Shown here: positions 4,022 to 61,885 of the stretch, in pieces
Position numbering within the stretch: position 1 is the first letter of the stretch
How the letters are laid out: each line of letters starts with the position of its first letter
Assembly: GCA_044868145.1 (NCBI GenBank)
Contig: JBIOWE010000004.1
Span: forward strand, 333,860 to 397,859
Source of the DNA: Patescibacteria group bacterium
GTDB lineage: Bacteria; Patescibacteriota; Patescibacteriia; UBA10025; JBIOWE01
Direction of reading: 5' to 3'
DNA: 64,000 nucleotides
Translations under genes and position numbers: made by a program
Notes under the pieces: generated by a model
What the model was told of the DNA's origin: nothing
The model's database searches: none
What the model saw: only the letters and a program-made list of their open reading frames with translations

Positions 4022-4651
4022 TCATGCCGCAAGCGTTTCAAAATAATTCAGCATATTCCACTGCGCGCTGAGCACTTCGCGCGCTTGAAGGAGCGCAACC
4101 GGATCAGGGGGCATTGCCTCTAAAATTTGTAGGGCGAACCCAATGTGCTCATGTTCATTCTCCGCGTGAACCCGGAAGAATTCCGTGGCAGGTCCATCGG
4201 TAAACCCATAGTGCTGGATGAGGCCTTTGCGTTTCAGCGCCATAACCTTTGGCAACTGAACCTCGTACACGTACATTGCCGCCACACCGGCAGATGGGCT
4301 TTTTTGAACTGCCCGTTGCAGACTCTCTGTGACTTTTGACGCAATGGCACGAGTTGCATCGTTCGCCAGATCTTTTTTCGTGAGGCCAAGCTCGAAACAA
4401 AAATCTTTGAACAAACGAACATGTTCCAGCTCATCTTGCGCGTGTTTGGTCAACTGCAAATCATCCAGCCCTTTTCCGCGAAGCCTCTCCATATTCACGG
4501 GGATGCATTCCGTTATTGGTAAATACGCAATGGCGTATTCCTTCAGTACATTCTTACTGATTTTACCATCCACCCACTTTTTATAAAATTGGTGGCCGGC
4601 TAAATCTTTATGGTGCACTGCGCGTTCCAACTGTGCAATCATTCCCTCCAC
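4022..4651 (-). CDS. TenA/PqqC-like (haem-oxygenase-like fold) protein
   Basis: 209 aa, all-helical, resembling the TenA/thiaminase-II/PqqC family from MEGMIAQLERAVHHKDLAGHQFYKKWVDGKISKNVLKEYAI... Assignment rests on pattern memory only. Confidence 0.4.
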   Translation of the reverse strand: MEGMIAQLERAVHHKDLAGHQFYKKWVDGKISKNVLKEYAIAYLPITECIPVNMERLRGKGLDDLQLTKHAQDELEHVRLFKDFCFELGLTKKDLANDATRAIASKVTESLQRAVQKSPSAGVAAMYVYEVQLPKVMALKRKGLIQHYGFTDGPATEFFRVHAENEHEHIGFALQILEAMPPDPVALLQAREVLSAQWNMLNYFETLAA

Positions 4652-7757: not shown

Positions 7758-8351
7758 ATGGCGCATTTGCCAAAATTCAACATTTTCGGTCACGCACATT
7801 TTGTAACGACCAATACACATCATCGCAGGCATATTTTCCGTAATGAGAAATGTTGTGAAATTTTGATATCCGAGATTAATTTCTATCGCAACAAGTTAAG
7901 GTTCAAATTAATCGGATACTGTATTATGCTAGATCATTTGCACATGATAATTTGGTGGGATCCGGGGACCGTACCGCATTTAGTGGTCTCAGCAATTATG
8001 CATCGTATCAAAAACCATTCCGCCCGCTCGATCATCGATTCTGTATATCACACGGGTGGGCAAGGTCCCTTGACCTTGCCGCCGCGTGTGCGCCTGGGTC
8101 AAGGGACCCAGGCTACCCGAGCGGAATATCCACACAAGAGAATGAGCAGACAACAATATCAGGTATGGCAACCCTCTTTCTATGACTTTAATATTTATTC
8201 AGAGGATATGCTACATCAAAAATTAGATTATATTCACCTGAATCCTGTCCGTGCCGGGCTTGTGCGCGATCCTGTTGACTGGAAATATTCCTCTGCCCGA
8301 AATTACTATCTAGGAGACGAGTCAATGTTAAAGATTGATCGACTATTATAA
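7758..8351 (+). CDS. REP-associated tyrosine transposase (RAYT; IS200/IS605-like Y1 HuH transposase)
   Basis: About 197 aa with N-terminal GHAHFVTTNTHHRRHIF, the HuH motif DHLHMII and C-terminal LDYIHLNPVRAGLVRDPVDWKYSS, which is characteristic of RAYTs. A GGAAGG RBS sits 8 nt upstream of the ATG at 7758. GTAG-initiated palindromic REP-like repeats occur elsewhere in the window. Confidence 0.75.
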   Translation: MAHLPKFNIFGHAHFVTTNTHHRRHIFRNEKCCEILISEINFYRNKLRFKLIGYCIMLDHLHMIIWWDPGTVPHLVVSAIMHRIKNHSARSIIDSVYHTGGQGPLTLPPRVRLGQGTQATRAEYPHKRMSRQQYQVWQPSFYDFNIYSEDMLHQKLDYIHLNPVRAGLVRDPVDWKYSSARNYYLGDESMLKIDRLL

Positions 8352-8355
8352 GCAT

Positions 8356-9879
8356 ATGTCTTCAAAAATTCTGACAGCGGCAATTGTCGGTCTTGACGCG
8401 CAAGTTGTGGAGGTCGAGGCGGATCTGACGTTCGGCTTGCCGCGCATGTTTATCGTGGGCTTGCCCGACGCCGCGGTTCAGGAGGCTAAGGAGCGCGTAC
8501 GGTCCGCGCTGAAAAACAGCGGCAATGAATTTCCGCGCGGCAATGTTACGGTAAATCTTGCGCCTGCGGATTTAAAAAAAGAAGGCCCGGCCTACGACCT
8601 ACCCATCGCGCTCGCGATTCTCGCGGCGCAAGGAGTCGTGCCGGCGTCTGCAAGCGAGCGTCGCCAGTTGTTTGTGGGTGAACTCGCGCTTGACGGAACG
8701 ATTCGCGGGGTGCGCGGCGTTCTTTCTATTATGCTTATGGCGCGTGAGCTGGGCGTTCGCGATCTTTTTCTGCCCGCGGAAAATGCCGAGGAGGCGAGCA
8801 TTATTCCTGGTGTAAAGATTTTCGCGGTTGACCATCTCCGGCTGTTAATACAACACCTGCGCGGCAAACGACAACTTGCGCCGTATCGCCATCATGGTGA
8901 AACACGGCAAGCGCCGAAGCAAGAGTACGCAATGGACATGGTGTACGTGCGCGGCCAGGAACATGCGAAGCGCGCCCTCGAAATCGCCGCGGCCGGCGGT
9001 CATAACCTGCTTATGACGGGTCCTCCGGGCTCGGGAAAAACAATGCTCGCGAAAGCGCTCAGGACGATTTTACCGCCGCTCACGTTGGAAGAATCGCTCG
9101 ACGTAACCCGTATTTATTCGGTTGCCGGACTTTTACCCAAACGTCAGCCCCTGTGGCGCGACCGACCGTTTCGCTCGCCGCATCATACGGCGTCATCCGT
9201 GGCGATTGTCGGCGGTGGCTCATGGCCAAAGCCCGGTGAAATATCGCTGGCGCATCGAGGTGTGCTGTTTCTGGACGAATTCCCGGAATTCCAGCGACAG
9301 GTTCTGGAAAGTTTGCGTCAGCCGCTCGAGGAAGGCGTTGTGGTTATCTCGCGCGTGGCAAACACCCTGCAATTTCCGAGCCGGTTCATTCTCGTGGCAG
9401 CGCAAAACCCCTGCCCATGCGGGTTTAGGACCGACCCTAGCCGTCAATGTACCTGCAGTGCGGCTGAAATTGTGAAATATCGAAAAAAAATATCCGGGCC
9501 ATTGCTTGACCGCATTGACCTGCACGTTGAAGTACCTCGCGTTCCCTATGAAAAGCTTACTTCGGCTGTTGCGGGCGAATCGTCAAGTGTTTTTCGCGAC
9601 CGTGTGGCAAAGGCCCGCGATGTGCAATCGGCTCGCTTCCGCGGCGCGAATATACAAACGAACGCCGAAATGCCGATTGCGGTGATGAAGGACTATTGTC
9701 GCCCTGATACTAAAGGCGCAGAATTGTTGCGACAAGCTATGACATCATTGAATCTCTCCGCGCGGTCGTATCAACGCATACTCAAAGTGAGTCGGACCAT
9801 AGCGGACCTTGCCGGATCGGAATCCGTAACCGCCACTCATATAGCGGAGGCATTGCAGTATAGGGAAAAAAGTCAGTAG
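8356..9879 (+). CDS. comM: YifB/ComM-family Mg-chelatase-like AAA+ ATPase
   Basis: About 507 aa with an N-terminal Lon-like domain (AAIVGLDAQVVEVEADL), Walker A GPPGSGKT and a C-terminal Mg-chelatase ChlI-like region. Confidence 0.85.
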   Translation: MSSKILTAAIVGLDAQVVEVEADLTFGLPRMFIVGLPDAAVQEAKERVRSALKNSGNEFPRGNVTVNLAPADLKKEGPAYDLPIALAILAAQGVVPASASERRQLFVGELALDGTIRGVRGVLSIMLMARELGVRDLFLPAENAEEASIIPGVKIFAVDHLRLLIQHLRGKRQLAPYRHHGETRQAPKQEYAMDMVYVRGQEHAKRALEIAAAGGHNLLMTGPPGSGKTMLAKALRTILPPLTLEESLDVTRIYSVAGLLPKRQPLWRDRPFRSPHHTASSVAIVGGGSWPKPGEISLAHRGVLFLDEFPEFQRQVLESLRQPLEEGVVVISRVANTLQFPSRFILVAAQNPCPCGFRTDPSRQCTCSAAEIVKYRKKISGPLLDRIDLHVEVPRVPYEKLTSAVAGESSSVFRDRVAKARDVQSARFRGANIQTNAEMPIAVMKDYCRPDTKGAELLRQAMTSLNLSARSYQRILKVSRTIADLAGSESVTATHIAEALQYREKSQ

Positions 9880-11055: not shown

Positions 11056-12480
11056 ATGGCAACACAAACGCATGTCGGTCAAAATAAAAATAAAAAGGAC
11101 GAGAAGCTGATCTTGCTTCTTGAAGAGCGCGAGAAGCAAAGGCGATTACAGTGGTCGGTGTACGTTCGATACATCGTCATCGTGGTCATTGTTGCGATCT
11201 CGCTCATGGGGGCGCAGTTTCAATTGAACTACGATCTCAGGGGGATATTCCTCGCCGTCGCGCTCGCGTTCATCTTTAACATCGCTTCTAGCTTTGTATA
11301 TCGCTCAACGCGGTATCCAGAGTTTTGGCCCTATCTCGGGATCTTTTTCGACATGATCGTAATTACGATCGTGGTGCATTTCACGGGCGGTATCGAAAGC
11401 GTGTTCTTGCCGTTGTATCTGTTGCAGCTCGTAGGGACTAATTTGCATTTTTCAAAAATCGCTGGCCCTTTGAATTTTATTTTTGGCGGTAACCTGTTCA
11501 TTTTTCTTGTCCTTCTTGAACAAGCTGGCGTTATTCCGCACTACGCAACGGGTTTCTTCCCTCCTGATGCGTATCAGAATCCTCAATTTATCCTCATGGT
11601 TTCGATCACGTTGATTGCGCTCATGGGTATTTCCACGTACCGCTCGGGTCACGTTGTCTGGAGTTTACAATCTGTTGAGCGAAAATTATTCGAGCTTAAT
11701 GAAGACTTGTCTCGGATGAACCAGGCGCTAGCGGAGGCGAACAAGCGTTTGAGTGATGCAGACCAAATAAAAACGGAATTTATTTCCGTCGCCTCTCACC
11801 AGATGCGGACCCCGTTGTCTGCAATCAAATGGTCGCTTAAAATGGTCATGGATGGGGACATGGGACAGTTATCGCCCGAGCAAAAAGACGTACTACGGAA
11901 AGGCTACATGAGCAATGAGCGGATGATTGGATTGATTAACGACTTGTTGAACGTATCGCGCATCGAGGAAGGGCGCTTTCAATATCAATTTCAGCCAACC
12001 CAACTTGAAGAAGTTGTGGATCATGCGCTTGAGGAGTTGCGCTCGGAAATTGAGACTCGCAAGATTCAATTTTCCTATGCGCCTCCTCGGGAACGGTTTC
12101 CTCCGCTGAATCTTGATGAGCAAAAAATTAAGCTGGCCTTGCAGAACGTTCTCGACAACGCCTTCAAGTATACGCAGAAAGGCGGAAAAGTATGGCTTTC
12201 TCTTGATCGCGAGGACGGCCAACTACACATACGAGTGCGGGATTCAGGTGTGGGTATCCCGCAGCACCAGCAACACAGAATTTTTTCAAAATTTTTTCGG
12301 GCGGATAACGTCATTCGGATGCAAACGGAAGGATCAGGACTCGGCCTTTTCATCGTTAAGAAGATTATCGAACATCATGGCGGACGCGTTTGGTTCGAAA
12401 GCCGTGAAGAACACGGCACGACGGTTCATATGACGATTCCGCTGGTTTTTAAGCCAAGTACTGCACAAACAAGATTATGA
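11056..12480 (+). CDS. sensor histidine kinase (membrane-bound)
   Basis: 474 aa with multi-TM N-terminus, H-box ISVASHQMRTPLSAIKWSL, N-box LQNVLDNAFKY and G-boxes DSGVGIP / GSGLGLFIVKKIIEHHGG. Confidence 0.85.
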   Translation: MATQTHVGQNKNKKDEKLILLLEEREKQRRLQWSVYVRYIVIVVIVAISLMGAQFQLNYDLRGIFLAVALAFIFNIASSFVYRSTRYPEFWPYLGIFFDMIVITIVVHFTGGIESVFLPLYLLQLVGTNLHFSKIAGPLNFIFGGNLFIFLVLLEQAGVIPHYATGFFPPDAYQNPQFILMVSITLIALMGISTYRSGHVVWSLQSVERKLFELNEDLSRMNQALAEANKRLSDADQIKTEFISVASHQMRTPLSAIKWSLKMVMDGDMGQLSPEQKDVLRKGYMSNERMIGLINDLLNVSRIEEGRFQYQFQPTQLEEVVDHALEELRSEIETRKIQFSYAPPRERFPPLNLDEQKIKLALQNVLDNAFKYTQKGGKVWLSLDREDGQLHIRVRDSGVGIPQHQQHRIFSKFFRADNVIRMQTEGSGLGLFIVKKIIEHHGGRVWFESREEHGTTVHMTIPLVFKPSTAQTRL

Positions 12481-18255: not shown

Positions 18256-19446
18256 ATGCCGCGACATTTCCACGCCCATCTCCCGCATTATTTTTCCAAG
18301 CACCCCTCGCGTTCGCTCGTAGAACTCTTTTGGTCAGTGGGCATTCTCGATTTTGCGACCGCAGCAGTTTCGCTCTTCGAGCCGATTTTTTTATACGTGA
18401 TCGGCTACTCGCTTGCCCAGATAATGTTGTTCTATCTGATCACGTACGGGGCGTACATCTTACTTCTGCCGTTCGGCGCGAAGATCGCGGGAAAGGCAGG
18501 ATACGAGCATGCGATTTTTTATAGTCAATTTTTCTTTATCGCCTACTACCTCTGTCTGTTCGCCATTCCAAACGTCCCGGCATTCTTTTTTGCCGCGCCG
18601 ATTATTTTCGCAATCCAAAAGGCGCTCTATTGGCCAGCGTTCCATGCGGACGTCACCGTATTTTCCCAAGCCGGACAGCGCGGCCGTGAATTAGGGAGCA
18701 TTATAACGATAAGTCGTGTGGCCTACATCCTCGGTCCCGTGGCAGCTGGATTTTTACTGGAGCGTGCTAATTTTAGCGTACTGTTTATCGTGGCGTCTTG
18801 TTTGTTTCTGGTTTCCACCATCCCCCTGTTTCGCATGCATGAGGTGCGCGAGACGACGTCTTTTTCGTATCCCAAAGTATTTCGCACCATGCGGGAAAAA
18901 ACTCATCGACGTAATTTTTTCGCGTTCCTCGGTTTTGGCGAGGAACTCATCGTGTTAACGCTTTGGCCGATCTTTATCTACACAATCGTTGGTGATTTTC
19001 TTGAGCTTGGTTCTTTGGTCGCGCTCGCAACTGTCACCACGGCTCTTTTTGTGCTGCTTTGGGGTAAAATGGCCGATAGGCAATCAAAGCAGCGTGCGCT
19101 TTCTGTGGGCGTTCTTTTTGCAGCGATTGCGTGGATTTTGAGAATTTTCGCACGCAGCGTGCCTCACGTTTTTGGGATTGACACGCTCTCGCGGTCATCG
19201 AAAGAAGCCTTGGTTATACCGCTTTTTGCCCAAGTATACGAATACGCCAGACGCGAAGGTCCGCTTACCTATATGGTGTTTTTCGAGTCGTCGCTAGGGA
19301 TCGGAAAATTTCTTACTGCGCTTTTGCTATTCATCCTTTTTTCGCTGACGTCGATTTCATGGCCAACGGTGTTCATTATTGGAGCGGCCCTGACGCTACT
19401 GTACCTCTTGTTTAAGCCGGCGGAGTCGAACGAACCCATTTCATAA
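18256..19446 (+). CDS. MFS-type transporter
   Basis: 396 aa with about 12 TM helices and basic loops between TM2/3 and TM8/9. Confidence 0.6.
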   Translation: MPRHFHAHLPHYFSKHPSRSLVELFWSVGILDFATAAVSLFEPIFLYVIGYSLAQIMLFYLITYGAYILLLPFGAKIAGKAGYEHAIFYSQFFFIAYYLCLFAIPNVPAFFFAAPIIFAIQKALYWPAFHADVTVFSQAGQRGRELGSIITISRVAYILGPVAAGFLLERANFSVLFIVASCLFLVSTIPLFRMHEVRETTSFSYPKVFRTMREKTHRRNFFAFLGFGEELIVLTLWPIFIYTIVGDFLELGSLVALATVTTALFVLLWGKMADRQSKQRALSVGVLFAAIAWILRIFARSVPHVFGIDTLSRSSKEALVIPLFAQVYEYARREGPLTYMVFFESSLGIGKFLTALLLFILFSLTSISWPTVFIIGAALTLLYLLFKPAESNEPIS

Positions 19447-19449
19447 CGC

Positions 19450-19476
19450 GTAGGTCGGGGCCAGGCCCCGACCTAC
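19450..19476. repeat. REP-like palindrome, copy 1 (GTAGGTCGGGGCCAGGCCCCGACCTAC)
   Basis: Perfect 12-bp arms around AGG with GTAG...CTAC termini, the form associated with RAYT transposases. It lies intergenic between the MFS gene and rsmA. Confidence 0.65.
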
Positions 19477-19491
19477 CGGGGTATTTTCGGT

Positions 19492-20346
19492 ATGACTATC
19501 GCATTAGAACAAACAATAAAAAATCTCAAGGCAGAGTATCGTTTTAGACCATCGCGATCATCCGGACAAAATTTTTTAATTGATGCCGAAACGCTTCAGG
19601 TCATGGTGCGTTCGGCAGATCTTCATCCTGATGACGTCATTTTGGAAATTGGCGCGGGGTTCGGCACGCTTACGTTTGAACTTGCGAAACGTGCGTCGCG
19701 CATGATTGCCGTTGAACTTGACCGTCGGCTCGCTGCGGCGCTTGCCACGGAAGTACAAAAACGGTCAGCCGCCAATATCGAGGTGATACCCGGTGATATT
19801 TTTTCACGATGGCGCGAATTGCATAAAACGGTCCACGACCTCGGTTACAAAATCGTGGCAAATCTTCCATACAATATCACCTCGCGCGTTCTTGGCGAGT
19901 TCGTCAGCATAAAACCCCGACCGTCCTCTATGACGGTTATGGTTCAGAAAGAAGTTGCCGAGAGAGTTGTTGCTGCGCCGGGCAAAACAAGCGTGTTGTC
20001 TATTGTCTGCCAATTGTACGGAGAACCGAGGATTGCGTCTACCGTGCCCGCTTCGCATTTTTGGCCCCAGCCCTCGGTCGATTCCGCCATACTGCATATC
20101 GCACAGATCGGTCTGCGCCATTCAAAGGTCCTGGGAGCGATTCCGGAAAGGAAATTTTTCCAAATCGTACGGATTGGGTTTGCCGCCCGGCGTAAACAAC
20201 TGCAAAACAATCTTGCAAACGGTTTCCGCGCTTCCCGTGACCGAGCAAAGGAATGGCTGCGCTTGGCGAATCTTTCCGAGACTGTTCGTGCGCAAGATTT
20301 GTCAGTGCAGGACTGGACTAAACTGGCCAAAATCATTGCCAAGTAG
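19492..20346 (+). CDS. rsmA: 16S rRNA (adenine1518/1519-N6)-dimethyltransferase
   Basis: 284 aa with GQNFLID, SAM-binding EIGAGFGTLT and NLPYNITS. Confidence 0.9.
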   Translation: MTIALEQTIKNLKAEYRFRPSRSSGQNFLIDAETLQVMVRSADLHPDDVILEIGAGFGTLTFELAKRASRMIAVELDRRLAAALATEVQKRSAANIEVIPGDIFSRWRELHKTVHDLGYKIVANLPYNITSRVLGEFVSIKPRPSSMTVMVQKEVAERVVAAPGKTSVLSIVCQLYGEPRIASTVPASHFWPQPSVDSAILHIAQIGLRHSKVLGAIPERKFFQIVRIGFAARRKQLQNNLANGFRASRDRAKEWLRLANLSETVRAQDLSVQDWTKLAKIIAK

Positions 20347-20369
20347 GTCGGTGCCAGGCTCCAACCTGC
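20343..20369. repeat. REP-like palindrome, copy 2 (degenerate: GTAGGTCGGTGCCAGGCTCCAACCTGC)
   Basis: The 5' arm matches copy 1; the 3' arm carries substitutions. Its GTAG overlaps the rsmA TAG stop. Confidence 0.5.
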
Positions 20370-20395: not shown

Positions 20396-20424
20396 TTGAC
20401 ACAACGACCCTTCTGTGATATAAT
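20396..20424 (+). promoter_or_regulatory. consensus sigma70 promoter (TTGACA-17-TATAAT) at the head of the giant-protein/T4SS-like operon
   Basis: ttgaca at 20396-20401, a 17-nt spacer, and tataat at 20419-20424. The first ATG of the downstream gene is at 20459. Confidence 0.6.
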
Positions 20425-20458
20425 TTTTGTACTAAACGAGAAAAAAATCAAGACAAAA

Positions 20459-21235
20459 ATGACCCCTGTGCCCGAACAAAAAAATGAACAAACGGAAGGG
20501 GTAAAAAATTTTAGTACGGGGCAAAATCTTTCGAAGAAACAACAGAAATTCGCACTTCTTCTCGTTGCGTTCATCGGTTTTTTGGCGATTGGTATCGCGG
20601 TGTATCAATTTTTTCATACCTTACGCGCGCCGTTTGCCATCAAAAACGTTGCTCTTAATATCAACGGTCTTACCACGCAACAAGCATTGATCGAGGGATT
20701 GCGCACGAAAGACACGGACGAGGACGGCATTTCCGATTACGACGAACTGTATACATACCGAACAAGCCCCTATCTTGCGGATTCGGATAGCGACAAGATT
20801 TCGGATAAAGACGAACTTGCCGCAGGAAAAAATCCAAATTGTCCGGAAGGGAAAGACTGTCTTCAGCCGAGCATTACCAATACTAATTCTCTCGTTGTCA
20901 TCCCGGGCACGCCCCAGGCAAGCGATATTCCGATAGCGACATTGCGCCAAACATTGAAAGACGCGGGCGCGCCGGAAGACGTTTTGAATGGTATGTCGGA
21001 CGACGAACTGCGCCAACTCTATCAAGAGGTAGTCCAGGAGCAAGGCGGCGCACAAAATCTGAACGCCGGCGCATCTGACGCAACAATATCTCTCAGTACG
21101 CTTCAGAATCTTACTCCCTCAGAAATTCGGCAGTTCTTAATCCAGAGCGGCATTTCTGAAAGCACACTCAATGACGTGAATGACGAACAGTTACAAGCCA
21201 TTTTTCAAGAGGCATTGGCACAATATACGCAATAG
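20459..21235 (+). CDS. membrane-anchored protein with Asp-rich Ca-binding-like repeats (DTDEDGISDYDE / DSDSDKISDKDE)
   Basis: About 258 aa with TM helix FALLLVAFIGFLAIGIAVY and thrombospondin-type-3-like D-x-D-x-D-G motifs. It is the first gene of the operon that leads into the giant protein. Confidence 0.5.
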   Translation: MTPVPEQKNEQTEGVKNFSTGQNLSKKQQKFALLLVAFIGFLAIGIAVYQFFHTLRAPFAIKNVALNINGLTTQQALIEGLRTKDTDEDGISDYDELYTYRTSPYLADSDSDKISDKDELAAGKNPNCPEGKDCLQPSITNTNSLVVIPGTPQASDIPIATLRQTLKDAGAPEDVLNGMSDDELRQLYQEVVQEQGGAQNLNAGASDATISLSTLQNLTPSEIRQFLIQSGISESTLNDVNDEQLQAIFQEALAQYTQ

Positions 21236-21390: not shown

Positions 21391-24300
21391 ATGTTTAGCA
21401 AAGAGAAAAAAACTAAACGTACCATACGATTCATCGCTGGTTTCATCCTGGTGAGTATACTGTTTATCATCGGTGGGACCGTGTTTTTGTATACGAGAAG
21501 CGCTCAGGCGCAGTTTGGTATTCCCGGCGTTCCACAGCCCACGATAGTTGTTGAGGACGTTCCGGCAAAAGTATTAAACGCGATCAATAAAGCGATAAAA
21601 ACTGCGGCCGATGTTGCGTTCAAAAACGTGCTTCGGCAGTTTTTGAATAAAATTGCGTACGACGCGGCGGTGTACGTCGCCTCCGGCGGCAAAGGCCAAA
21701 AGCCATTGTTTTTGACGAACCCCGGCCAACTCCTTGAAAAAACCGCGGACAATGCGTATGGCGAGTACCTCGATAATCTTTCAAAACAGGTTTGGGGAAA
21801 ATCATTGTGTGATCAGCCCCCGTTTATTAAAGCGCGTTTGGATGTTTGGGCGCGCCAGGTGAAAGACCCGAAGATCACGCAGGCAACCTGCCCTGTGTCC
21901 GCGGCTGTCGCGAACATTCAACGCAGCACGCATGAGCAACTTGTTGACTTTTCAAAAAAATTCAATCCGCAAGCTTCTGAATTTGGGGCGTATCTCTCTA
22001 TTATTTCCGGCGCGGAACAATTCAGCTCGAAGCAAGTTGAATCAACGAAATTCGTTAAGCAACTCGAAGGGGAGTTTGAGTCCGTGAAGAGTACGATCAC
22101 CGGAGCGGTGAAGACGCCCGCGCGCACCGTTGGCGACGCGCTTTCCAGCATCGTGCCGGAATCCATTAAACCGTATGCGACCTATACCGGTACGGCGATA
22201 GCCGACGCTATCGGCGTGTTCACGAATACGCTTACGAGTAAATTGATTGAGCGGATATTTAAAAAAGGTTTTAACCCGGAAGCAGACACGAGCTTTAGAG
22301 AATTTGTCGGCACATCTTCCTCCGGCGTCGCGGCGGCACGAACATTGTTTGCCTCACTCAATCAGCCGGATTTTAATGTTGGGGGATCGCAAGACATTCT
22401 CAATATACTCGCTTCTTGCCCGCCGACCCCAGCCTATAATAATTGCATTATCGATGAAAAATTCCGCATTGCCATTGAGCAGGAGTTAACCGTTGGAGAG
22501 GCATTGCAGCAAGGACTGCTTGATAGTTCAAAAATTTTCGGTTTCGACGCGCAAGGGCGCGAACCGACCTTTCGAAATGGCTATCCATACCGAAGCTTGC
22601 TCGTTTTGCGGCACTATAGAATTATTCCTGCCGGATGGGAGCTTGCTGCGGGGTACATTCAGAAATTTGAACCCGGCAACTACACGCTTGGCGGTCTGGT
22701 CGCGCAGTATGAACAGAAAGAGAAGTCGCCGGGCCAGCCAAATCCGTTTTATCATCTGATTGACCCGAACTGGGTGTTGAAAGCTCCGGAATTATTTTGT
22801 CGCAGGCAGGGCGCGGGCGAACAGGTGACCAACGAACAATTTAGCCCAACCTTTAATCTGGACGACCCAAACAATCAAATTTCCACCCGACAAGTGCAGC
22901 GAGCGGATTACTGCGCGGACGAGCAAACGTGTCTTTTTGAAAACGAGGACGGTTCGTGCAAACGGTTCGGCTATTGCGTCGAAGAAAAGCCAATCTGGCG
23001 GTTCCAAGGGACGCAATGCGCCTCCCAGTTCTCAACGTGTCAGGCATTTCAGAAACAAGACGGCACATCAGTCGCATACGTGCAAAACACCATTGATTAC
23101 AACAGTTGCAACGCGAACAACGCCGGCTGCCAAATTTATTGTACGGAATTCAACACCTCGACGAATCAATGGCAATGCGACACGGGCGACAATCTTAGTA
23201 CGGGAGAAAGTAATATCATCAGCTTCAACGGTCAGGTGCAATCGTGTAATGCAACCGCTGCGGGGTGCAGTGAATTCATTCGCACAAAAGACGGGCTCGG
23301 CACGAACATTCTTGCGAACGGAAGTTTTGAAAAATTCTCCGGCACGATTAATGACCAAACAAAGGATACCGTAGACCAATGGGGACTTGCTGACGTTTCG
23401 TCTGAAGCGTTTTCTGGACTTGCGGCCGCACAGATTGTTCCGAATGATTCCATTGTGAGCGTACCGCTTGCTACGGGCTTTGCGGTTGGAGGTCGGACAT
23501 TTACGTTGTCGTTTCATGGGAAGCGTATTAGTGGCGATTGCTCGAGCGGCAACACCTATTCACTCGAGACTCAAGGCGCGCCAAGCCCGGAACTTTCGAC
23601 CTCGTTCACCTATTTCGATTCATGGACCAGGTATGCGGGCACTATCACGTTCCCCGTTGGCACGCCCGCGACGAACTTGGTTGTCCGCGTTGGCAATAAT
23701 GCGACGTGTACGAGCGTGGTTGACGCCGTACAGCTCGAAGAAGGCAGCCAGCCCAGCGACTACAAGGACTACGGGTCAGTGAACAAATTATATTTGAATG
23801 GCCAGCGTATTTCCTGTTCTGATGAAGAAGTGGGCTGTGAGCAGTACACGTCCGTTACGACAGGCGAATCAATCCCAGGCAAAGTAACGAACCCCCAGAT
23901 TTGCGATCCGAATGACCCAAGCTCTTGTGACCAGTGCCCTGTTCAGTACTTGGGGTGCAAGGCCTATCGAGAAATGCCAATCACGAATACACCGCAACGG
24001 CCAGGGCAAGATATTATTTCCTTTATTGCTTCCACGGGCCAAGCGTGCCCCGCGTCAGCCGTGGGCTGCGAAGAGTACACGAATCTCGACGAAGTGGCGG
24101 GTGGCGGCGAAGGTCTGGAATATTACAGCTTGATTCGACAGTGCGTGAAAGACGATGCACCGAACATCGGCACCTACTACACGTGGGTCGGTTCGGATGA
24201 ATTCGGATATCAATTGAAAAAATTCGAGCTGAAAAAAAGTAACTTAGGCGGTGCGCCCTGCACGAACCTCGGCATTGACAACCCGAGTTTGCCCGGCCAA

Positions 24301-27300
24301 TATCAGTGGCCGAATTGCGTTGACGGACAAACGTTTGATGAAAACGGCGACGGTATATCCGAAACCCACGATGCGGCAACGTGTCCATTGAACCAGGTTG
24401 GGGTAAATCCAGATTGTACGCAGTTTTATGACGATATCGGCAACACCTACACAGTGCTCAAGTCAAGAATCGCCTACGCAGATGCGAACTGCCACCCATA
24501 CAGGAACACTATAGACGGACAGGCAGTGACGTACCATCTTATTCCTGGCCAGGGCATTCAGTGCTCGGCCCAGTATGCGGGCTGTCGCGAGTACAAAGGC
24601 AACGCCGGAACGAACATCCGCACACTTATTTCATCCGACTTTGAGTCCGGCTCCATTAATCCGTGGGCGTCTGATGCGCCGGGGAACTTGAACCCCAGCA
24701 CGGAATCAGTGCAAGTGGGCGGGCACTCCATGCTCGTGTTGACAACCGCCTCGACGAATGTGGAGACGCTCATAACGCAAGGGAAATCGTATCTCATTTC
24801 ATTCTGGGCAAAATCAGACAGCGCGGATACGATTGTGCGCGTTGGCTTTACGAATCCGAATATCGTTTTCCCGGGTCAGGCAGCCGTGAAAGTCCAGGAT
24901 TGGAACCGCTATCAAATGGGTCCGGTATTTTTGAACCAGCCAGTAACCGCGGGCGCGAAGCTTTCCATTTTCTCGGCTGGCGATGCATTCTTTGTTGATA
25001 ATATCATCGTCCAGGAAGTGGTCGATAATATTTATATGATCAAGGGTTCCTACCAAGAATGCGCCGGCTATGAAAACTGCGATGCGTACCGCGACCGCGA
25101 CAACCAAACCCATTACCTGAAATCCTTCTCGAATTTGTGCGCGTCCGATAAAGTCGGCTGCGAAGCAATGATTGACACGAAAAATTCAAGCTCGGCGTTC
25201 AGCGAACAGTTTACGGCGAATCCGGAGCGCGGGGATATGAATGGCGATGGCAAGTACACGTTCGAAGACGGTGAGTACATTATGAATTACATATTTAATC
25301 GGGATGGGCCAAAACCGTATCCAGTACTGCTTGCGGATGTAAACGGTTCTGGCACGATCTCGCTTAGCGACCAAATCTATCTTGTGAATTATATTAATGG
25401 AAACGGCCCCGCACCCGTGCCCTACAATGCGACAAAGCGAACAATCCCTGACGATAGCTACGTGTACATGGTCAATGACCCTGCAAAATACTGCGATGCC
25501 CAAGAAAAAGGCTGTTCAAGACTGGGGACCGTTAACTTTAATTTGAACAATCAGGTTTCCGGATACGCTGATACGTACCTCATCAATAATCCCGATACCT
25601 ATGGTCAGACGCTGTGCAAGTCCTCCGAGCAGAGTTGCGCCGCATTCAACACGGGCAGCGGTACGTCATACTTTAAAGATCCCAAGCGTCAATGTGAATA
25701 TCGAGATGTTGGTGCCGGCCGAACCGGCTGGTACAGAGTAGGGAGTGCGTCATTGACGCCGGATTGTCCGGTCGCGACTGGTTTTTGTTTCGGCGGCGCA
25801 AACGCAGGCGCTGCGTGTGACATCGATAGTGATTGCGGAAGCAACATATGCAAATCTTCTTCGGAAGGCCTTTCTCAGCCGACGAACGGGTGGGTCGGAA
25901 TCTGCCCGGCGGGCCAATCCGGTTGCCAGGAATACAGCGACCCGACGGAATCGCTCGATGCCTCCGTTGGGCAGTGCAAGGTGAATTTGAATACTGGGAC
26001 ATACGAAACGGTGTGTACCGCGGGCGACGGAGCTGGAACGACTAATTGCGATCCGAGCAATCCTGCGCCAGTCTGCGATCCGGATGCTGATGGTGTGAAT
26101 GGCGTCTGCAGCGTCAGCGCAGTGTCTTGCAAACCATATTACTACGTTAATCAAAGCATTGACACCTCATCTTGCTTCGGAACCGTGGACCCGCGTATCG
26201 GGTGCCGTCTGTTCTATGATAGCTCGCAAGGCGCAGCAACGTATGACAGCAGGGCGACCTATACAGAGGTAGATCGCATCAAGCAGCCAACAGCGCCAGT
26301 CACCTGCGCCGATCCAAACAATTGCGATTCAAACCTTATCGTCAAAGTCCGGAACGATCGGGAATGCGGTAAATGGCTCGAATGCGCGACGTCGACTAGA
26401 GTAACGAATACCCGTGGAGAGGTGGAAGAGCTCTGTTTCGATATTAAGGCGTGCAATAAGATTGATCCGAAAACAGGCGCATGCATAGGTACGCGTGCGT
26501 GCTCAAATGATTCGACAAAGAGTTGTACGACCAACGCGGACTGCACGGGAGGTGGAACCTGTGTAGAGCTTGATATTCAGAATTCTAACATTACGCCGCA
26601 CGCCTCAACAAACGTTGATGTCATTAAAAATTCGTCCGGTATTGTTAAGGCAGGCGTGAACTGGGGTTGCTCTAACGATCCTGCCATTGTATGTAAAATA
26701 GATGCGGACTGCGGCTTGGGTAATAAGTGTCAAATCATCAGCGGATTTTACCCCGTGCGCGCCATGACCGAGATTGGGTTAGGAGGCGCTAGCGACGTTG
26801 ATCTTGTAGCCACCGGCGACATGGGGGATATTGATCTGAACGAAGGGTACAAGAAAACGTTTCCAGCCGGTTGGGAACGATCAGGGGCGGACCTCACGCG
26901 GGTGATTGAAGAGGCCTTGGACGGGACGCCGGATCGAGCAAAGATTGACGAAAATAACGTGTTGGTGGTGGACACGAACAGCACCGTCGCCGGGGAAGGC
27001 GTGCAATACCAGCTAACCGGTGTTGGTTCGGCGGAATACGTGGTTTCGCTCAATGCTCGATTCGATGCAACCCCTGAACCGGACGACATGATCGCCGTGA
27101 AGCTTGGCTATTTTAATTCGCTAGGCGTGCTTATTGGTTCGCAATTGATTGGGGACCGTATTCAGCCGACCACCTCATGGGCAAAGTTCGTGTTCGGTCC
27201 TTTGACGCCGAATATTCCCGCGAGCACGGACTCGGTAAAACTGCAGATTGTGCAGGAATCAGCCTCAGGAGGAGACGTGCAAAACGGCATAACGTTTTAT

Positions 27301-29271
27301 CTGGATAACGTTTCCATGAAACCAACGCTCGAAGTGCAAAGCGATCCGCCGAACCCTTCCAATAAGTTAACGCGGACGTGCCGCATGTACCCGCGCTCGG
27401 ATTCAACCCTCTGTCGGTACATTGATAGTAATGGAGCGGAATACAAAGGGTGGTTCGGCTATTGTATTGAACAAGACCCGAAGAATCCGAGCCAATGCAT
27501 TACCTGGTGGCCCGTTGATATTATCGCCGGAGAGTCGAACGTGTTCGGTGCCGGCGTAAAAGCCGGGTATGCGGATCGTGCTCCCTTATATATGTGCGTG
27601 GATTCAAGAGGCAATTATAACCGCGCCGGCAACAAGTATATAATCACAGCTAATGCATATTCCATGTTTTATCTTGACGGCGACTCGTGCGGTAATTCTT
27701 CCGGGGTTGGAAGTTGCGGTCCGACTGCCACGGATATCTACGGTCGGAGTTATTCATATAATTGTAAAGTCAATGGTGCAGGGTTTACATTCGGCGGATG
27801 TGTGCGTAATGCGAGCGGAGGCGGACAAGCGAATTATCGCTATTGGAATATTCCTTCGGCAGGGCAACCAGAATATGGTCTTTTTGATTACGAAATCGAA
27901 CGTGTACTAGGCAGAAAAGTGTCAAATCGCGGTGAATATCCGAACTCCTTCGTCTTAACTGCCAACGATGCCACCACTGACCCAGACCCGGACTTTGTTG
28001 GCCTGCAAGGTAACCTTCCGCTTAACGGTTCCGCATGGGTGTTTAAGTGTTCTCACACCGATGCAGTTTGCGGCGGGCAAGATTTACGCGTTGCCCTAGT
28101 ATTCGACGGTCAGCATCGCTTAATTCGCTACTATGTCTACCTGGATGACTGGACGGGAAGCGAAAACGAAGCCGGAGCGTTCACTCTTGATTTTTATCTC
28201 CGTGAGCAGTGCGAAGCGCTCGCGCAAGTGGTAAAGTCCGGCGGCGATAACGTTGCTTGGGCTGGCAGGTCCTCTTCAGGGTCGCCGTATACCGCTCAAG
28301 ATTTGCAATATAATTATCTGACTGATTTTGCACCATTCGGCGGTGTGCTACAACCAAAGCCGGAAGGCAGCACGCCGGATAGTTGGGCAGTCCCTGTCTA
28401 CGCGGAGCAACGCCAAAATCCGCGAGATACTTCGACGGCTCGGGCGGGCAGCGCCTATGCGTGCGATAATGGTAACTGCAGCACGCGCATGTGCAGTAAT
28501 AGCAGCACGAACGATTGTTCGGACGATAATAAGATTAACACGTGCTTGAAAGGCCAGGATGGTGTGGTGAATACGGCGGATGATGGCTACTGTATTGGAC
28601 TTGGTCCATACCCGCCTGGCGGCACGGGCGGCGGCGTGTGGGCGAGCGGCAAAACCATTGCCCTGGGCATTGATCGCCTCAAGCGTCTATTCGCCGACGT
28701 ATACGTAAGTTGGGCATGGGACTATGCGCAGGGAAAATACGTTATTCAGCAGCCGATTATCAATGCATGGCAGGCTAGCTTTGACGGGATGAGTGAATGT
28801 CCCGGAGCACGCCCGGGTTACCCCAACGATTACTGCGGCATTCGGCCGCAAGCCGGCAACTTACGCATTGTTGCGGGCGGCTCTTCGTATAAATCCGGAG
28901 ATATTACGATCCAGAGCGGTGACACAATACAACTAACATTCACGAGTACGGCAGATCGCGAGCAACTACCGTTGCAGCGCATTCGCATCGATTGGCAGGG
29001 GAATGGCTTTAATACAAATCCCAACGATGGCGATGTTGATGAACCGTGGGGCTTTGCACCCAAAGGCGACCCCGCGAACCCGCATTGGTATAACCACACG
29101 TATACTTCCATTGACGCGGCCACCTGTCCGGGCACCGGCTGCAAGCCGACAATTCAACTAATCGACAACTGGGGTTGGTGCAGTGGTGGATCCGGTGTGG
29201 ACAGGCGGAACGTTCCGGACGGAGTATGTACGTCCGTTGACACCTATCCGGATGATATTATTGTCCAGTAG
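21391..29271 (+). CDS. giant (2626-aa) cysteine-rich extracellular protein with an N-terminal TM anchor and a dockerin-type Ca-binding repeat pair
   Basis: Single long ORF with N-terminal TM RFIAGFILVSILFIIGGTVFLY and more than 100 Cys in recurring C-x-C / CxxC contexts. A dockerin-like tandem (DMNGDGKYTFEDGEYIMNYIFNRDG...ADVNGSGTISLSDQIYLVNYINGNG) lies at about 25234-25410, with Gly-rich C-terminal stretches. The stop is 5 nt before the VirB6-like gene. Confidence 0.7.
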   Translation: MFSKEKKTKRTIRFIAGFILVSILFIIGGTVFLYTRSAQAQFGIPGVPQPTIVVEDVPAKVLNAINKAIKTAADVAFKNVLRQFLNKIAYDAAVYVASGGKGQKPLFLTNPGQLLEKTADNAYGEYLDNLSKQVWGKSLCDQPPFIKARLDVWARQVKDPKITQATCPVSAAVANIQRSTHEQLVDFSKKFNPQASEFGAYLSIISGAEQFSSKQVESTKFVKQLEGEFESVKSTITGAVKTPARTVGDALSSIVPESIKPYATYTGTAIADAIGVFTNTLTSKLIERIFKKGFNPEADTSFREFVGTSSSGVAAARTLFASLNQPDFNVGGSQDILNILASCPPTPAYNNCIIDEKFRIAIEQELTVGEALQQGLLDSSKIFGFDAQGREPTFRNGYPYRSLLVLRHYRIIPAGWELAAGYIQKFEPGNYTLGGLVAQYEQKEKSPGQPNPFYHLIDPNWVLKAPELFCRRQGAGEQVTNEQFSPTFNLDDPNNQISTRQVQRADYCADEQTCLFENEDGSCKRFGYCVEEKPIWRFQGTQCASQFSTCQAFQKQDGTSVAYVQNTIDYNSCNANNAGCQIYCTEFNTSTNQWQCDTGDNLSTGESNIISFNGQVQSCNATAAGCSEFIRTKDGLGTNILANGSFEKFSGTINDQTKDTVDQWGLADVSSEAFSGLAAAQIVPNDSIVSVPLATGFAVGGRTFTLSFHGKRISGDCSSGNTYSLETQGAPSPELSTSFTYFDSWTRYAGTITFPVGTPATNLVVRVGNNATCTSVVDAVQLEEGSQPSDYKDYGSVNKLYLNGQRISCSDEEVGCEQYTSVTTGESIPGKVTNPQICDPNDPSSCDQCPVQYLGCKAYREMPITNTPQRPGQDIISFIASTGQACPASAVGCEEYTNLDEVAGGGEGLEYYSLIRQCVKDDAPNIGTYYTWVGSDEFGYQLKKFELKKSNLGGAPCTNLGIDNPSLPGQYQWPNCVDGQTFDENGDGISETHDAATCPLNQVGVNPDCTQFYDDIGNTYTVLKSRIAYADANCHPYRNTIDGQAVTYHLIPGQGIQCSAQYAGCREYKGNAGTNIRTLISSDFESGSINPWASDAPGNLNPSTESVQVGGHSMLVLTTASTNVETLITQGKSYLISFWAKSDSADTIVRVGFTNPNIVFPGQAAVKVQDWNRYQMGPVFLNQPVTAGAKLSIFSAGDAFFVDNIIVQEVVDNIYMIKGSYQECAGYENCDAYRDRDNQTHYLKSFSNLCASDKVGCEAMIDTKNSSSAFSEQFTANPERGDMNGDGKYTFEDGEYIMNYIFNRDGPKPYPVLLADVNGSGTISLSDQIYLVNYINGNGPAPVPYNATKRTIPDDSYVYMVNDPAKYCDAQEKGCSRLGTVNFNLNNQVSGYADTYLINNPDTYGQTLCKSSEQSCAAFNTGSGTSYFKDPKRQCEYRDVGAGRTGWYRVGSASLTPDCPVATGFCFGGANAGAACDIDSDCGSNICKSSSEGLSQPTNGWVGICPAGQSGCQEYSDPTESLDASVGQCKVNLNTGTYETVCTAGDGAGTTNCDPSNPAPVCDPDADGVNGVCSVSAVSCKPYYYVNQSIDTSSCFGTVDPRIGCRLFYDSSQGAATYDSRATYTEVDRIKQPTAPVTCADPNNCDSNLIVKVRNDRECGKWLECATSTRVTNTRGEVEELCFDIKACNKIDPKTGACIGTRACSNDSTKSCTTNADCTGGGTCVELDIQNSNITPHASTNVDVIKNSSGIVKAGVNWGCSNDPAIVCKIDADCGLGNKCQIISGFYPVRAMTEIGLGGASDVDLVATGDMGDIDLNEGYKKTFPAGWERSGADLTRVIEEALDGTPDRAKIDENNVLVVDTNSTVAGEGVQYQLTGVGSAEYVVSLNARFDATPEPDDMIAVKLGYFNSLGVLIGSQLIGDRIQPTTSWAKFVFGPLTPNIPASTDSVKLQIVQESASGGDVQNGITFYLDNVSMKPTLEVQSDPPNPSNKLTRTCRMYPRSDSTLCRYIDSNGAEYKGWFGYCIEQDPKNPSQCITWWPVDIIAGESNVFGAGVKAGYADRAPLYMCVDSRGNYNRAGNKYIITANAYSMFYLDGDSCGNSSGVGSCGPTATDIYGRSYSYNCKVNGAGFTFGGCVRNASGGGQANYRYWNIPSAGQPEYGLFDYEIERVLGRKVSNRGEYPNSFVLTANDATTDPDPDFVGLQGNLPLNGSAWVFKCSHTDAVCGGQDLRVALVFDGQHRLIRYYVYLDDWTGSENEAGAFTLDFYLREQCEALAQVVKSGGDNVAWAGRSSSGSPYTAQDLQYNYLTDFAPFGGVLQPKPEGSTPDSWAVPVYAEQRQNPRDTSTARAGSAYACDNGNCSTRMCSNSSTNDCSDDNKINTCLKGQDGVVNTADDGYCIGLGPYPPGGTGGGVWASGKTIALGIDRLKRLFADVYVSWAWDYAQGKYVIQQPIINAWQASFDGMSECPGARPGYPNDYCGIRPQAGNLRIVAGGSSYKSGDITIQSGDTIQLTFTSTADREQLPLQRIRIDWQGNGFNTNPNDGDVDEPWGFAPKGDPANPHWYNHTYTSIDAATCPGTGCKPTIQLIDNWGWCSGGSGVDRRNVPDGVCTSVDTYPDDIIVQ

Positions 29272-56048: not shown

Positions 56049-56528
56049 TTATTTGATATTGATAAGATAAATAAGATCCGCGTCGACGACAAGTTGTGCA
56101 TTTGCATTTTTCGACGACTGGACGATAACCGTATTGCCGTTATGCAGGTCCGCTTTCTGTACTTCGGTTGTTTGTGAATAAAACGCGTCCGTGTTGGTCC
56201 TCTTGTTTGTCGTATTGATGCGTACGATCCTTGTTGCGTTCGTTATGTTGACCGTAAATGAATAGGAAGTTCGCTTGGCAGTGGATGGATCGGTTACCTG
56301 CACTTTCACGGCTAACGCGTTATCGTTCACGTCGGTAATTTCTCCGCGCCATTGGTACATGGGTTGCTGCGTTTGCTGCGACGCTATGTAAGATTCTATG
56401 GTTTTAACCGTTTGTTCTTCATTCTTTTGCGATCGAATTTCAGTCAGAAGCAGCACAACGACCAAAGCGGCAAAGGTAATGAGGATCGTAATCTCCAATA
56501 AAAATTTTTTATTTTCTTTTCTTGACAT
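56049..56528 (-). CDS. hypothetical membrane-anchored protein
   Basis: About 160 aa from the ATG at 56528 (MSRKENKKFLLEITILITFAALVVVLL). Its start codon overlaps the -35 of the divergent promoter. Confidence 0.4.
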   Translation of the reverse strand: MSRKENKKFLLEITILITFAALVVVLLLTEIRSQKNEEQTVKTIESYIASQQTQQPMYQWRGEITDVNDNALAVKVQVTDPSTAKRTSYSFTVNITNATRIVRINTTNKRTNTDAFYSQTTEVQKADLHNGNTVIVQSSKNANAQLVVDADLIYLINIK

Positions 56529-56550
56529 TTTCAAGAAATCTTGGTACAAT
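56522..56550 (+). promoter_or_regulatory. near-consensus sigma70 promoter (TTGACA-17-TACAAT) for the first YVTN-propeller paralog
   Basis: ttgaca at 56522-56527, a 17-nt spacer, and tacaat at 56545-56550. Confidence 0.55.
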
Positions 56551-56637
56551 GAATCAGTACGAAAAACGGTTTCATGAGTTGATTATCACGTATTTTCGTG
56601 ATTCTGTCAATTTATTTACCATTTTAAAACAAACAGA

Positions 56638-59600: not shown

Positions 59601-59782
59601 GCGGAAACGCGATTGTGGGCGCAAACGTCATCGCTTCGAGCAACGCATGGGGAGGCGCATCAGATACGCTTGTCAATGTCGCTGGACAAGGGACATATAA
59701 CTGTCCCGACGGTTATTTCGTTAAAGATATTGTGGTGGACGGGAGCAATAACCCGACGCAATTAAAATGCAGGCCATTGTAA
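56638..59782 (+). CDS. secreted tail-fibre-like / YVTN-type beta-propeller repeat protein, paralog 1
   Basis: Up to 1086 aa. The start is uncertain: the GTG at 56638 gives MRERRTKEK + hydrophobic signal-anchor, and the ORF-track start lies inside the promoter. It has an N-terminal Gly-rich repeat region (QLDVNGSGYLNALTVDQNLTVNGNTLFVDSQNNRIGLGT...), at least 9 repeats of the motif [AV]FDG[TSQK]x[IVL]W[VT], and the C-terminal tail CPDGYFVKDIVVDGSNNPTQLKCRPL. Confidence 0.6.
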
Positions 59783-59795
59783 TAACCATATCATG

Positions 59796-59822
59796 GTAGG
59801 TCGGGGCCAGGCTCCGACCTAC
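59796..59822. repeat. REP-like palindrome, copy 3 (GTAGGTCGGGGCCAGGCTCCGACCTAC)
   Basis: Near-identical to copy 1. It sits just upstream of paralog 2, and the ORF-track ATG at 59793 immediately abuts its GTAG. Confidence 0.65.
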
Positions 59823-59834
59823 GAAGTCACTGAA

Positions 59835-61838: not shown

Positions 61839-61844
61839 ATATTG

Positions 61845-61873
61845 ACCTTGGTCAGGGCGAGGCCCTGACCTAC
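61845..61873. repeat. REP-like palindrome, copy 4 (variant: GGTCAGGGCGAGGCCCTGACCTAC)
   Basis: Perfect 9-bp arms with a CTAC 3' end, sharing the GCC..GACCTAC architecture. It sits just upstream of paralog 3. Confidence 0.5.
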
Positions 61874-61885
61874 GAGCGTGCTGAA

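Follow-up and report, generated by a model that had tools for sequence, protein, structure and literature searches.

Do the short palindromes that recur just behind genes in a patescibacterial genome belong to one mobile repeat family, and which enzyme would spread them? The question is raised by a stretch of 64,000 nucleotides from a Patescibacteria group bacterium (positions 333,860 to 397,859 of contig JBIOWE010000004.1, assembly GCA_044868145.1; hereafter the window), in which four 27-nt palindromes lie at the ends of genes and which also carries a gene for a REP-associated tyrosine transposase (RAYT), the type of enzyme associated with repetitive extragenic palindromic (REP) elements. The four palindromes are real copies of one repeat family, in which a 5′-GTAG foot and a 3′-CTAC foot close a GC-rich stem-loop. 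It is likely, and we hold this with good confidence, that they form a GTAG-type double-foot REP family linked to RAYTs. A first-pass annotation had described them as REP-like, GTAG-initiated palindromes and possible RAYT substrates, a description that is supported by their shared sequence, by the RAYT gene of the window, by the presence of the same 27-mer in RAYT genes of relatives, and by the published double-foot form of REPs. The coordinates of the features are collected in Table 1.

Table 1. Positions of the repeat copies, the RAYT gene and its internal hairpins in the window
Feature	Positions	Strand	Description
REP copy 1	19450-19476	+	GTAGGTCGGGGCCAGGCCCCGACCTAC; palindrome of 13+1+13 without mismatch
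REP copy 2	20343-20369	+	GTAGGTCGGTGCCAGGCTCCAACCTGC; 4 mismatches to GTAGGTCGGGGCCAGGCCCCGACCTAC; decayed
REP copy 3	59796-59822	+	1 mismatch to GTAGGTCGGGGCCAGGCCCCGACCTAC, giving a G.U wobble on the + strand
REP copy 4	61847-61873 (best alignment)	+	5 mismatches to GTAGGTCGGGGCCAGGCCCCGACCTAC; stem 61850-61870
RAYT / TnpAREP-type Y1 (HUH) transposase gene	7758-8351	+	197 aa; NF047646, PF01797
Hairpin h1 in the RAYT coding sequence, in frame	8056-8079	+	GTGG foot + GCAAGGTC CCTT GACCTTGC
Hairpin h2 in the RAYT coding sequence, in frame	8093-8116	-	GTAG foot on the - strand

Among the window copies, identity amounts to 22-27 of the 27 bases, and the central A is on the + strand in every copy, so that all four share one orientation. 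The 5′ GTAG foot is present in copies 1-3 and the 3′ CTAC foot, which is GTAG on the opposite strand, in copies 1, 3, and 4. Copy 4 has lost its 5′ foot, has retained the 3′ foot, and carries one compensatory pair (G to A in the left arm, C to T in the right arm). No such set is expected by chance: dinucleotide-preserving shuffles of the window contained no 27-mer at three or fewer mismatches, and the degenerate core had a mean of 0.09 in the shuffles versus 8 strand-hits, equal to 4 sites, in the window. The presence of four copies claimed in the first-pass annotation is thus upheld, and so are its coordinates for copies 1-3; copy 4 had been placed from 61845 and is better aligned from 61847. 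The annotation had allowed that the copies might prove to be unrelated terminator hairpins sharing only GC stems, whereas the extent of the common sequence shows otherwise. A fuzzy scan at up to six mismatches together with half-site scans found no further copies in the window. In the same scans the dispersed window copies were all singlets, and no pairing as REPINs (inverted doublets of REPs), a point that the annotation had marked for checking, was found. An Rfam search of the window at gathering thresholds returned three tRNAs only and nothing at the repeats.

The 27-nt element forms a 12-bp stem with a 3-nt loop. Copies 1, 3, and 4 fold well above shuffled sequences whether treated as RNA or as single-stranded DNA (z -3.2 to -6.3), the single-stranded DNA folds having -10.6 to -14.2 kcal/mol and z values of -4.9 to -6.3. 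For copy 1, the DNA fold reaches -14.2 kcal/mol (z -6.3) and the RNA fold in context a z value of -3.2. Copy 2 folds no better than shuffles (z -0.6 to -0.9). Across the 27-mer family, which is a set biased by the search pattern, covariation does not exceed that of shuffles and sequence identity is 92%. High identity without excess covariation would be more in keeping with template copying, or with recognition of the sequence itself, than with a structural hairpin of generic type.

The link between the repeat and the transposases comes from related genomes (contigs L, proteins P). The exact 27-mer is found in frame, translated as GRSGPGPDL, within the type B RAYT genes P0035 and P0036 (L076, L079, L095-L100), and in L076 and L079, as in L095-L100, the RAYT gene that bears it lies just upstream of yifB. 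In P0109, a member of a third RAYT lineage (45% identical, 33% GC), a complete 27-mer has a left half copy on one side and a right half copy on the other (L106, 2369-2455), and in L091 a 27-mer lies 5.3 kb from another RAYT. Recognition of the 27-mer by a RAYT as single-stranded DNA may be proposed on this indirect ground, that the repeat is embedded in RAYT genes of relatives. The loop that precedes the WQ motif varies from about 5 to about 100 residues across approximately 190 RAYT homologs (P0001-P0190, homologs of the window RAYT and of P0035), and the long loops often resemble translated GC-rich palindromes, including GRRGPLTSP..LGQGTQATR, GRSGPGPDL, ALAPRPEL, GSRGVSAST, HRAGNLSS in two copies, and others. 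This variation points to repeated in-frame insertion of REPs at one site of the RAYT gene.

Other arrangements were seen among these genes. The N-terminal and C-terminal parts of the RAYT at 7372-8070 of L091 are near those of P0011 (L102), and its middle consists of three hairpins of another family, whose core is GATCTGAGGATC. Turnover of the REP-encoding loop seems to occur among RAYT orthologs. One type A and one type B gene occur together with a weak Y1_Tnp gene on a single 42-kb contig (L102, ERZ27247128 k141_455160, with L095), and L106 has two RAYTs in a span of 4.4 kb. For genomes this small, RAYT genes seem unusually common.

The RAYT of the window is recognized by NCBIfam NF047646 ('REP-associated tyrosine transposase', 110.3 bits, cutoff 80) and by Pfam Y1_Tnp (35.6 bits, cutoff 23). 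It contains the HUH motif (DHLH), WQ, and the tyrosine motif within YIHLNP...YSSARNYY. Its sole relative among solved structures is E. coli TnpAREP (PDB 4ER8). The gene lies directly upstream of yifB (8356-9879). The two hairpins in its coding sequence have the core GGTCCCTTGACC in common and form an inverted, REPIN-like doublet (8056-8116), translated ...GGQGPLTLPPRVRLGQGTQAT... The pair is kept at the DNA level in type A RAYT relatives that are only 54-57% identical, and h2 is identical in L103 even though the RAYT proteins are 57% identical. Compared to relatives (GGCGAGGTC...GACCTCGCC), h1 has changed on both arms in a compensatory manner, and the encoded amino acids differ on each arm. 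This single compensatory event suggests that selection may act on the nucleic-acid hairpin rather than on the peptide.

Outside the window, the 27-mer was found at 11 loci on contigs of 33-41% GC, including three contigs of the Patescibacteria metagenome-assembled genome (MAG) JAHIRB01. These three came from a scan of representative genomes, a set that does not include the window's own genome, with the degenerate core; the MAG has 34% GC, and its matches carry the CTAC foot and include one identical 27-mer. About 64 single matches to the core came from high-GC genomes; none of them had the feet, and we took them to be chance matches. A metagenome scan gave more contigs with a GC fraction of 0.34-0.41, including two pairs of orthologous loci. 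High-GC metagenome matches were set aside, and a group of contigs at 49% GC (L077, L082, L092, L093) proved to carry a different multi-hairpin element and not the REP. Viral contigs scanned with the pattern gave no match and hence no phage link. The genomes that host the 27-mer are not close relatives of the window, with identities of 64% for YifB, 59% for GDH, and 43-52% for LeuRS. In relatives, each of the eight dispersed copies is found either downstream of an open reading frame (ORF) or between two ORFs that are unidirectional or convergent, never divergent. Together with the placement in the window, this agrees with the REP distribution reported by Di Nocera, De Gregorio, and Rocco (2013, PMC3733652), who place most GTAG REPs downstream of ORFs, where the flanking genes are unidirectional or convergent, and note that some families span several species.

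In the window, each copy begins 0-13 nt past a stop codon, between co-directional genes of the + strand, as the first-pass annotation had stated in placing the copies at gene ends. An MFS transporter gene (18256-19446) stops 3 nt ahead of copy 1, which ends 15 nt before the ATG of rsmA (19492). The GTAG of copy 2 overlaps the TAG stop codon of rsmA at 20344-20346; a Pfam RrnaAD match runs to the last residue of the rsmA ORF (19492-20346), and the claim that the repeat is the source of this stop codon holds. Copies 3 and 4 occupy the two gaps in a tandem array of three paralogs (56522-63844). Copy 3 follows the stop of paralog 1 (56522-59782) by 13 nt and precedes ATG 59835 of paralog 2 by 12 nt, and copy 4 follows the stop of paralog 2 by 8 nt and precedes ATG 61886 of paralog 3 by 12 nt. 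Copy 3 also falls within the first 10 codons of ORF 59793-61838, for which a spurious N-terminal extension had been suspected. A BLASTP comparison of paralog 2 with paralog 3 opens at residue 15 (ATG 59835), which corresponds to M1 of paralog 3; thus, ATG 59793 is very probably a spurious start and 59835 the real one, as suspected.

A mechanism may be proposed in which the REPs are non-autonomous and would fold into a hairpin on single-stranded DNA. The RAYT/TnpAREP HUH-tyrosine enzyme would recognize the hairpin and its GTAG foot, cut, and rejoin the DNA, by which the family would spread and be maintained. Copies would persist where they are least harmful, just past stop codons and between co-directional or convergent genes. 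Mobility of the repeats through a RAYT is, in this form, what we infer from the sequences. Once inserted, copies would appear in transcripts as stable RNA hairpins (about -19 to -27 kcal/mol), at the 3′ end or between cistrons. There they would probably impede 3′ exonucleases or modulate read-through and the expression of neighboring cistrons. In E. coli, transcribed REP hairpins can stabilize upstream mRNA, as is reported for malE-malF.

Several observations weigh against a RAYT-linked REP family in this genome. REPs are expected at tens to hundreds of copies per genome, and the count obtained here, four copies or about one per 16 kb, covers 64 kb of the genome. A tblastn search found no second RAYT in the window. 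The internal REP pair of the window RAYT differs from the 27-mer, the nearest 27-mer lies 11 kb away, no 27-mer flanks the gene, no GT[AG]G-footed hairpin occurs within 1 kb on either side of it, and the REPtron arrangement, a RAYT between its own REPs, is not seen there; no dispersed copies of h1 or h2 were found in the 914 kb examined. Copies 3 and 4 are each followed by 12 nt with '...CTGAA ATG'; they may not be independent insertions and may have arisen by tandem gene duplication instead of transposition. Copies 2 and 4 are decayed, and the family may therefore be inactive here. Lastly, eight window proteins in an exact look-up were each the sole member of their own 90%-identity cluster among approximately 15 billion proteins, which indicates that no close relative has been sequenced in which an empty site could be seen.

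A further point of this kind concerns termination. Several copies in low-GC relatives are flanked by T/A runs (L025, T8, 'CTACAAATTTTTTTT'; L074 and L091, on both sides; L008), and terminator function could thus explain part of their retention. Taken further, this would make the palindromes ordinary intrinsic terminators or mRNA-stabilizing hairpins that evolved in place, immobile and without a transposase link, which would also suit the location of all copies at gene 3′ ends and of copy 2 at an operon boundary just ahead of a perfect promoter. However, no window copy has a U-tract, and the sole call of a terminator scan at the repeats was an alternative 6-bp stem (19465-19482) overlapping copy 1, not any of the four REP stems themselves. 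For copies 1, 3, and 4, which lie between cistrons, the next start codon is just 12-15 nt away, and in relatives the 27-mer lies in frame within RAYT coding sequences, where termination would be harmful. Independently evolved terminators would not match at 22-27 of 27 bases, and the 27-mer is identical across genomes of 33-49% GC whose YifB, GDH, and LeuRS are as divergent as noted above. We consider this explanation improbable. Even less probable is that the repeats, instead of being substrates of a transposase, are double-stranded palindromes bound by a host protein, be it a regulator, nucleoid protein, or DNA-uptake receptor. A near-perfect dyad conserved in distant genomes suits a dimeric DNA-binding protein, and Patescibacteria carry competence genes, such as ComEC beside the RAYT in L103; yet the copies lie past stop codons and not in promoters, and a binding site of this sort accounts neither for the feet (GTAG/CTAC) nor for the specific tie to RAYT coding sequences in three lineages of RAYT, both of which the REP model explains. 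The density of about one per 16 kb is also far below that of known DNA uptake sequences, such as those of Neisseria and Haemophilus. The DNA-uptake-sequence, operator, CRISPR-type, and terminator readings were accordingly rejected.

The main alternative, given that two of the four copies have decayed, is that the palindromes are relic or orphan REPs, whose spreading RAYT was lost or was never that of the window, and which are now decaying or are kept for a host function. Besides the 4-5 mismatches of copies 2 and 4 and the failure of copy 2 to fold, the different internal pair and the absence of flanking 27-mers at the window RAYT speak for it, and loss of tnpAREP that leaves REPs behind is discussed by Quentin, Siguier, Chandler, and Fichant (2018, PMC6006769). 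No type B RAYT from the same 414-kb contig was among the P0035 homologs returned by a search that depends on a word index and is limited to assembled sequence, with most of the genome outside its view. Against a relic speak the perfect sequence of copy 1 and the single, wobble-compatible change in copy 3, which are suggestive of recent copying or of strong constraint. We regard relic status as possible, though clearly the less probable outcome. Under the preferred reading of a RAYT-linked double-foot REP family, the cognate enzyme is probably a type B RAYT, similar to P0035, P0036, and P0109, and not the type A enzyme of the window. It may lie elsewhere in the genome, because the window RAYT has a different internal REP pair and no flanking 27-mer.

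A more tentative proposal, which we think rather unlikely, is that a REP in frame within a RAYT gene acts as a heritable 'seed', so that enzyme and substrate would move together by horizontal transfer. This would explain how an identical 27-mer comes to be present in Patescibacteria of 33-49% GC with housekeeping proteins about 45-64% identical, and why RAYT orthologs keep their N-terminal and C-terminal parts and yet swap the REP loop (L091 versus L102). The genome of the window would then be a recipient, its seed-bearing RAYT being lost or located elsewhere. If this were true, the in-gene REP would be no accident that the gene tolerates but a working component, serving as donor copy or autoregulatory hairpin.

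Compared to known systems, the closest description is that of double-foot REPs (5′ GT[AG]G, 3′ C[TC]AC) of TnpAREP subclass 2.4, which corresponds to RAYT Group 4 of Bertels (PMC6006769). In that subclass, REPs occur in frame within tnpAREP, between HuH and Y, and it was proposed that a double-foot REP could arise from an inverted REP dimer by central deletion (PMC6006769). The half copies that flank the full copy in L106 are a longer form consistent with such an origin. The likeness extends to the double-foot hairpin, to in-frame REPs (h1/h2 in the window, the 27-mer in the RAYTs of L076, L079, and L106), to a protein of about 194 aa with WQ, and to a patchy taxonomic distribution. The differences are also several. 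Table 1 of PMC6006769 gives subclass 2.4 the motifs NH[IFV]H, WQ, and YIxNNP and no C-terminal tail domain, whereas the proteins considered here have DHLH or NHFH, YIH[LYE]NP, and an SS-containing tail (YSSARNYY), type B RAYTs having [DN]HFH, WQ, and YIHYNP. By this comparison of motifs, the window RAYT fits the signature in WQ and not strictly in HuH, Y, or tail. The insertion lies at beta3:alphaC in subclass 2.4 and here between the post-HUH helix and the WQ strand; the host is Patescibacteria-like, a group absent from PMC6006769; and the window RAYT is not flanked by the dispersed REP. The window RAYT is therefore not placed firmly in subclass 2.4, because its motifs, tail, and insertion site fit inexactly.

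With the REPs and bacterial interspersed mosaic elements (BIMEs) of E. coli and their TnpAREP (YafM; PDB 4ER8; PMC3479197), the window repeats share a GTAG foot, a GC-rich and, in E. coli, imperfect palindrome, and an extragenic position past stop codons, and the enzyme is an HUH-Y1 protein homologous to the window RAYT. E. coli REPs differ in their one-sided GTAG foot, their bulged stems of about 35 nt, their hundreds of copies, their BIME clusters, and the REPs that flank tnpAREP; the element described here is a perfect dyad of 27 nt, footed at both ends, and occurs as singlets in the window. The REPINs of Pseudomonas fluorescens (Bertels & Rainey 2011, PMC3116915) are likewise short palindromes tied to single-copy, vertically inherited RAYTs; h1/h2 resemble them as an inverted doublet, and the dispersed 27-mers, which form no doublets, do not. 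The GTAG REP super-family (PMC3733652) has GTAG-tagged palindromes of 20-40 bp with the same placement and some intragenic copies, its tag being unpaired at one end, whereas here the tag is base-paired with CTAC.

The repeat thus belongs to a known class of bacterial mobile repeats and is ordinary in kind. In-gene REPs have already been published, and since the present observations match the descriptions in PMC6006769 and PMC3733652, the in-gene REP is not new. Literature searches found no paper that links REPs or RAYTs to Patescibacteria or the candidate phyla radiation, and the present results extend REP-RAYT systems, including in-gene REPs, to ultra-small Patescibacteria-type genomes, in which repeats are thought to be scarce. 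For annotation, the element accounts for one very probably spurious N-terminal extension and one stop codon, and it marks intercistronic sites. The 27-mer provides an easily searched marker for related genomes, and its identity in divergent hosts makes the question of joint horizontal spread of a REP family and its RAYT tractable here.

Further elements were observed around the 27-mer in other genomes. On low-GC Patescibacteria contigs it stands beside other GC-rich palindrome families, such as GTTGGCGAGACGTCGACGTCTCGCCAAC and GAAAGCGACATTGGCCAATGTCGCTTTC, in BIME-like clusters (L070, 3984-4094; L081, 97-1037; L008, ~4555-4621; L025, 2396-2417). A 72% GC metagenome contig carries GTAGGTCGGGGCGTAGCCCCGACCTAC, with both feet and the same stem (L089, 3609-3635), and may represent a related REP family outside Patescibacteria. 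The different element of the 49% GC contigs, drawn in only through one stem that resembles the REP core, is a conserved intergenic multi-hairpin structure of about 230 nt (L092, ~12000-12260; L093, ~2400-2650; also L077 and L082). It is closed by ACTGATGTTACGCA...TGCGTAACATCAGT, contains several GAAA-type loops, and shows a compensatory change between contigs (GACGCTGAAAGCGTC versus GACCCTGAAAGGGTC); it had no Rfam match, even at E<=1. The LeuRS genes of L095 (9180-12248) and L098 (11214-14780), with products of 1022-1188 aa, have internal Abhydrolase/Ser_hydrolase Pfam matches and appear to contain an inserted domain.

Some features near the window copies may also be recorded. Right after copy 2 lies a perfect sigma-70-like promoter (12/12; TTGACA, 17 nt, TATAAT, with TG) at 20396-20424. 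The TTG 'start' at 20396 of ORF 20396-21235 is its -35 box, and the true start must therefore be further downstream. With the boundaries used here, neither the rsmA product nor that of 61886-63844 is on record, suggesting that genes beside the repeats were called differently. The three paralogs encode 1086, 681, and 652 aa, with paralogs 2 and 3 being 36% identical; they have no Pfam match, have a common C-terminal ...FVK...CRPL, and stand behind one promoter-like site (TTGACA 56522-56527, 17 nt, TACAAT 56545-56550). Together with a 2626-aa ORF in the same window (region 21391-29271), they may encode cell-surface proteins.

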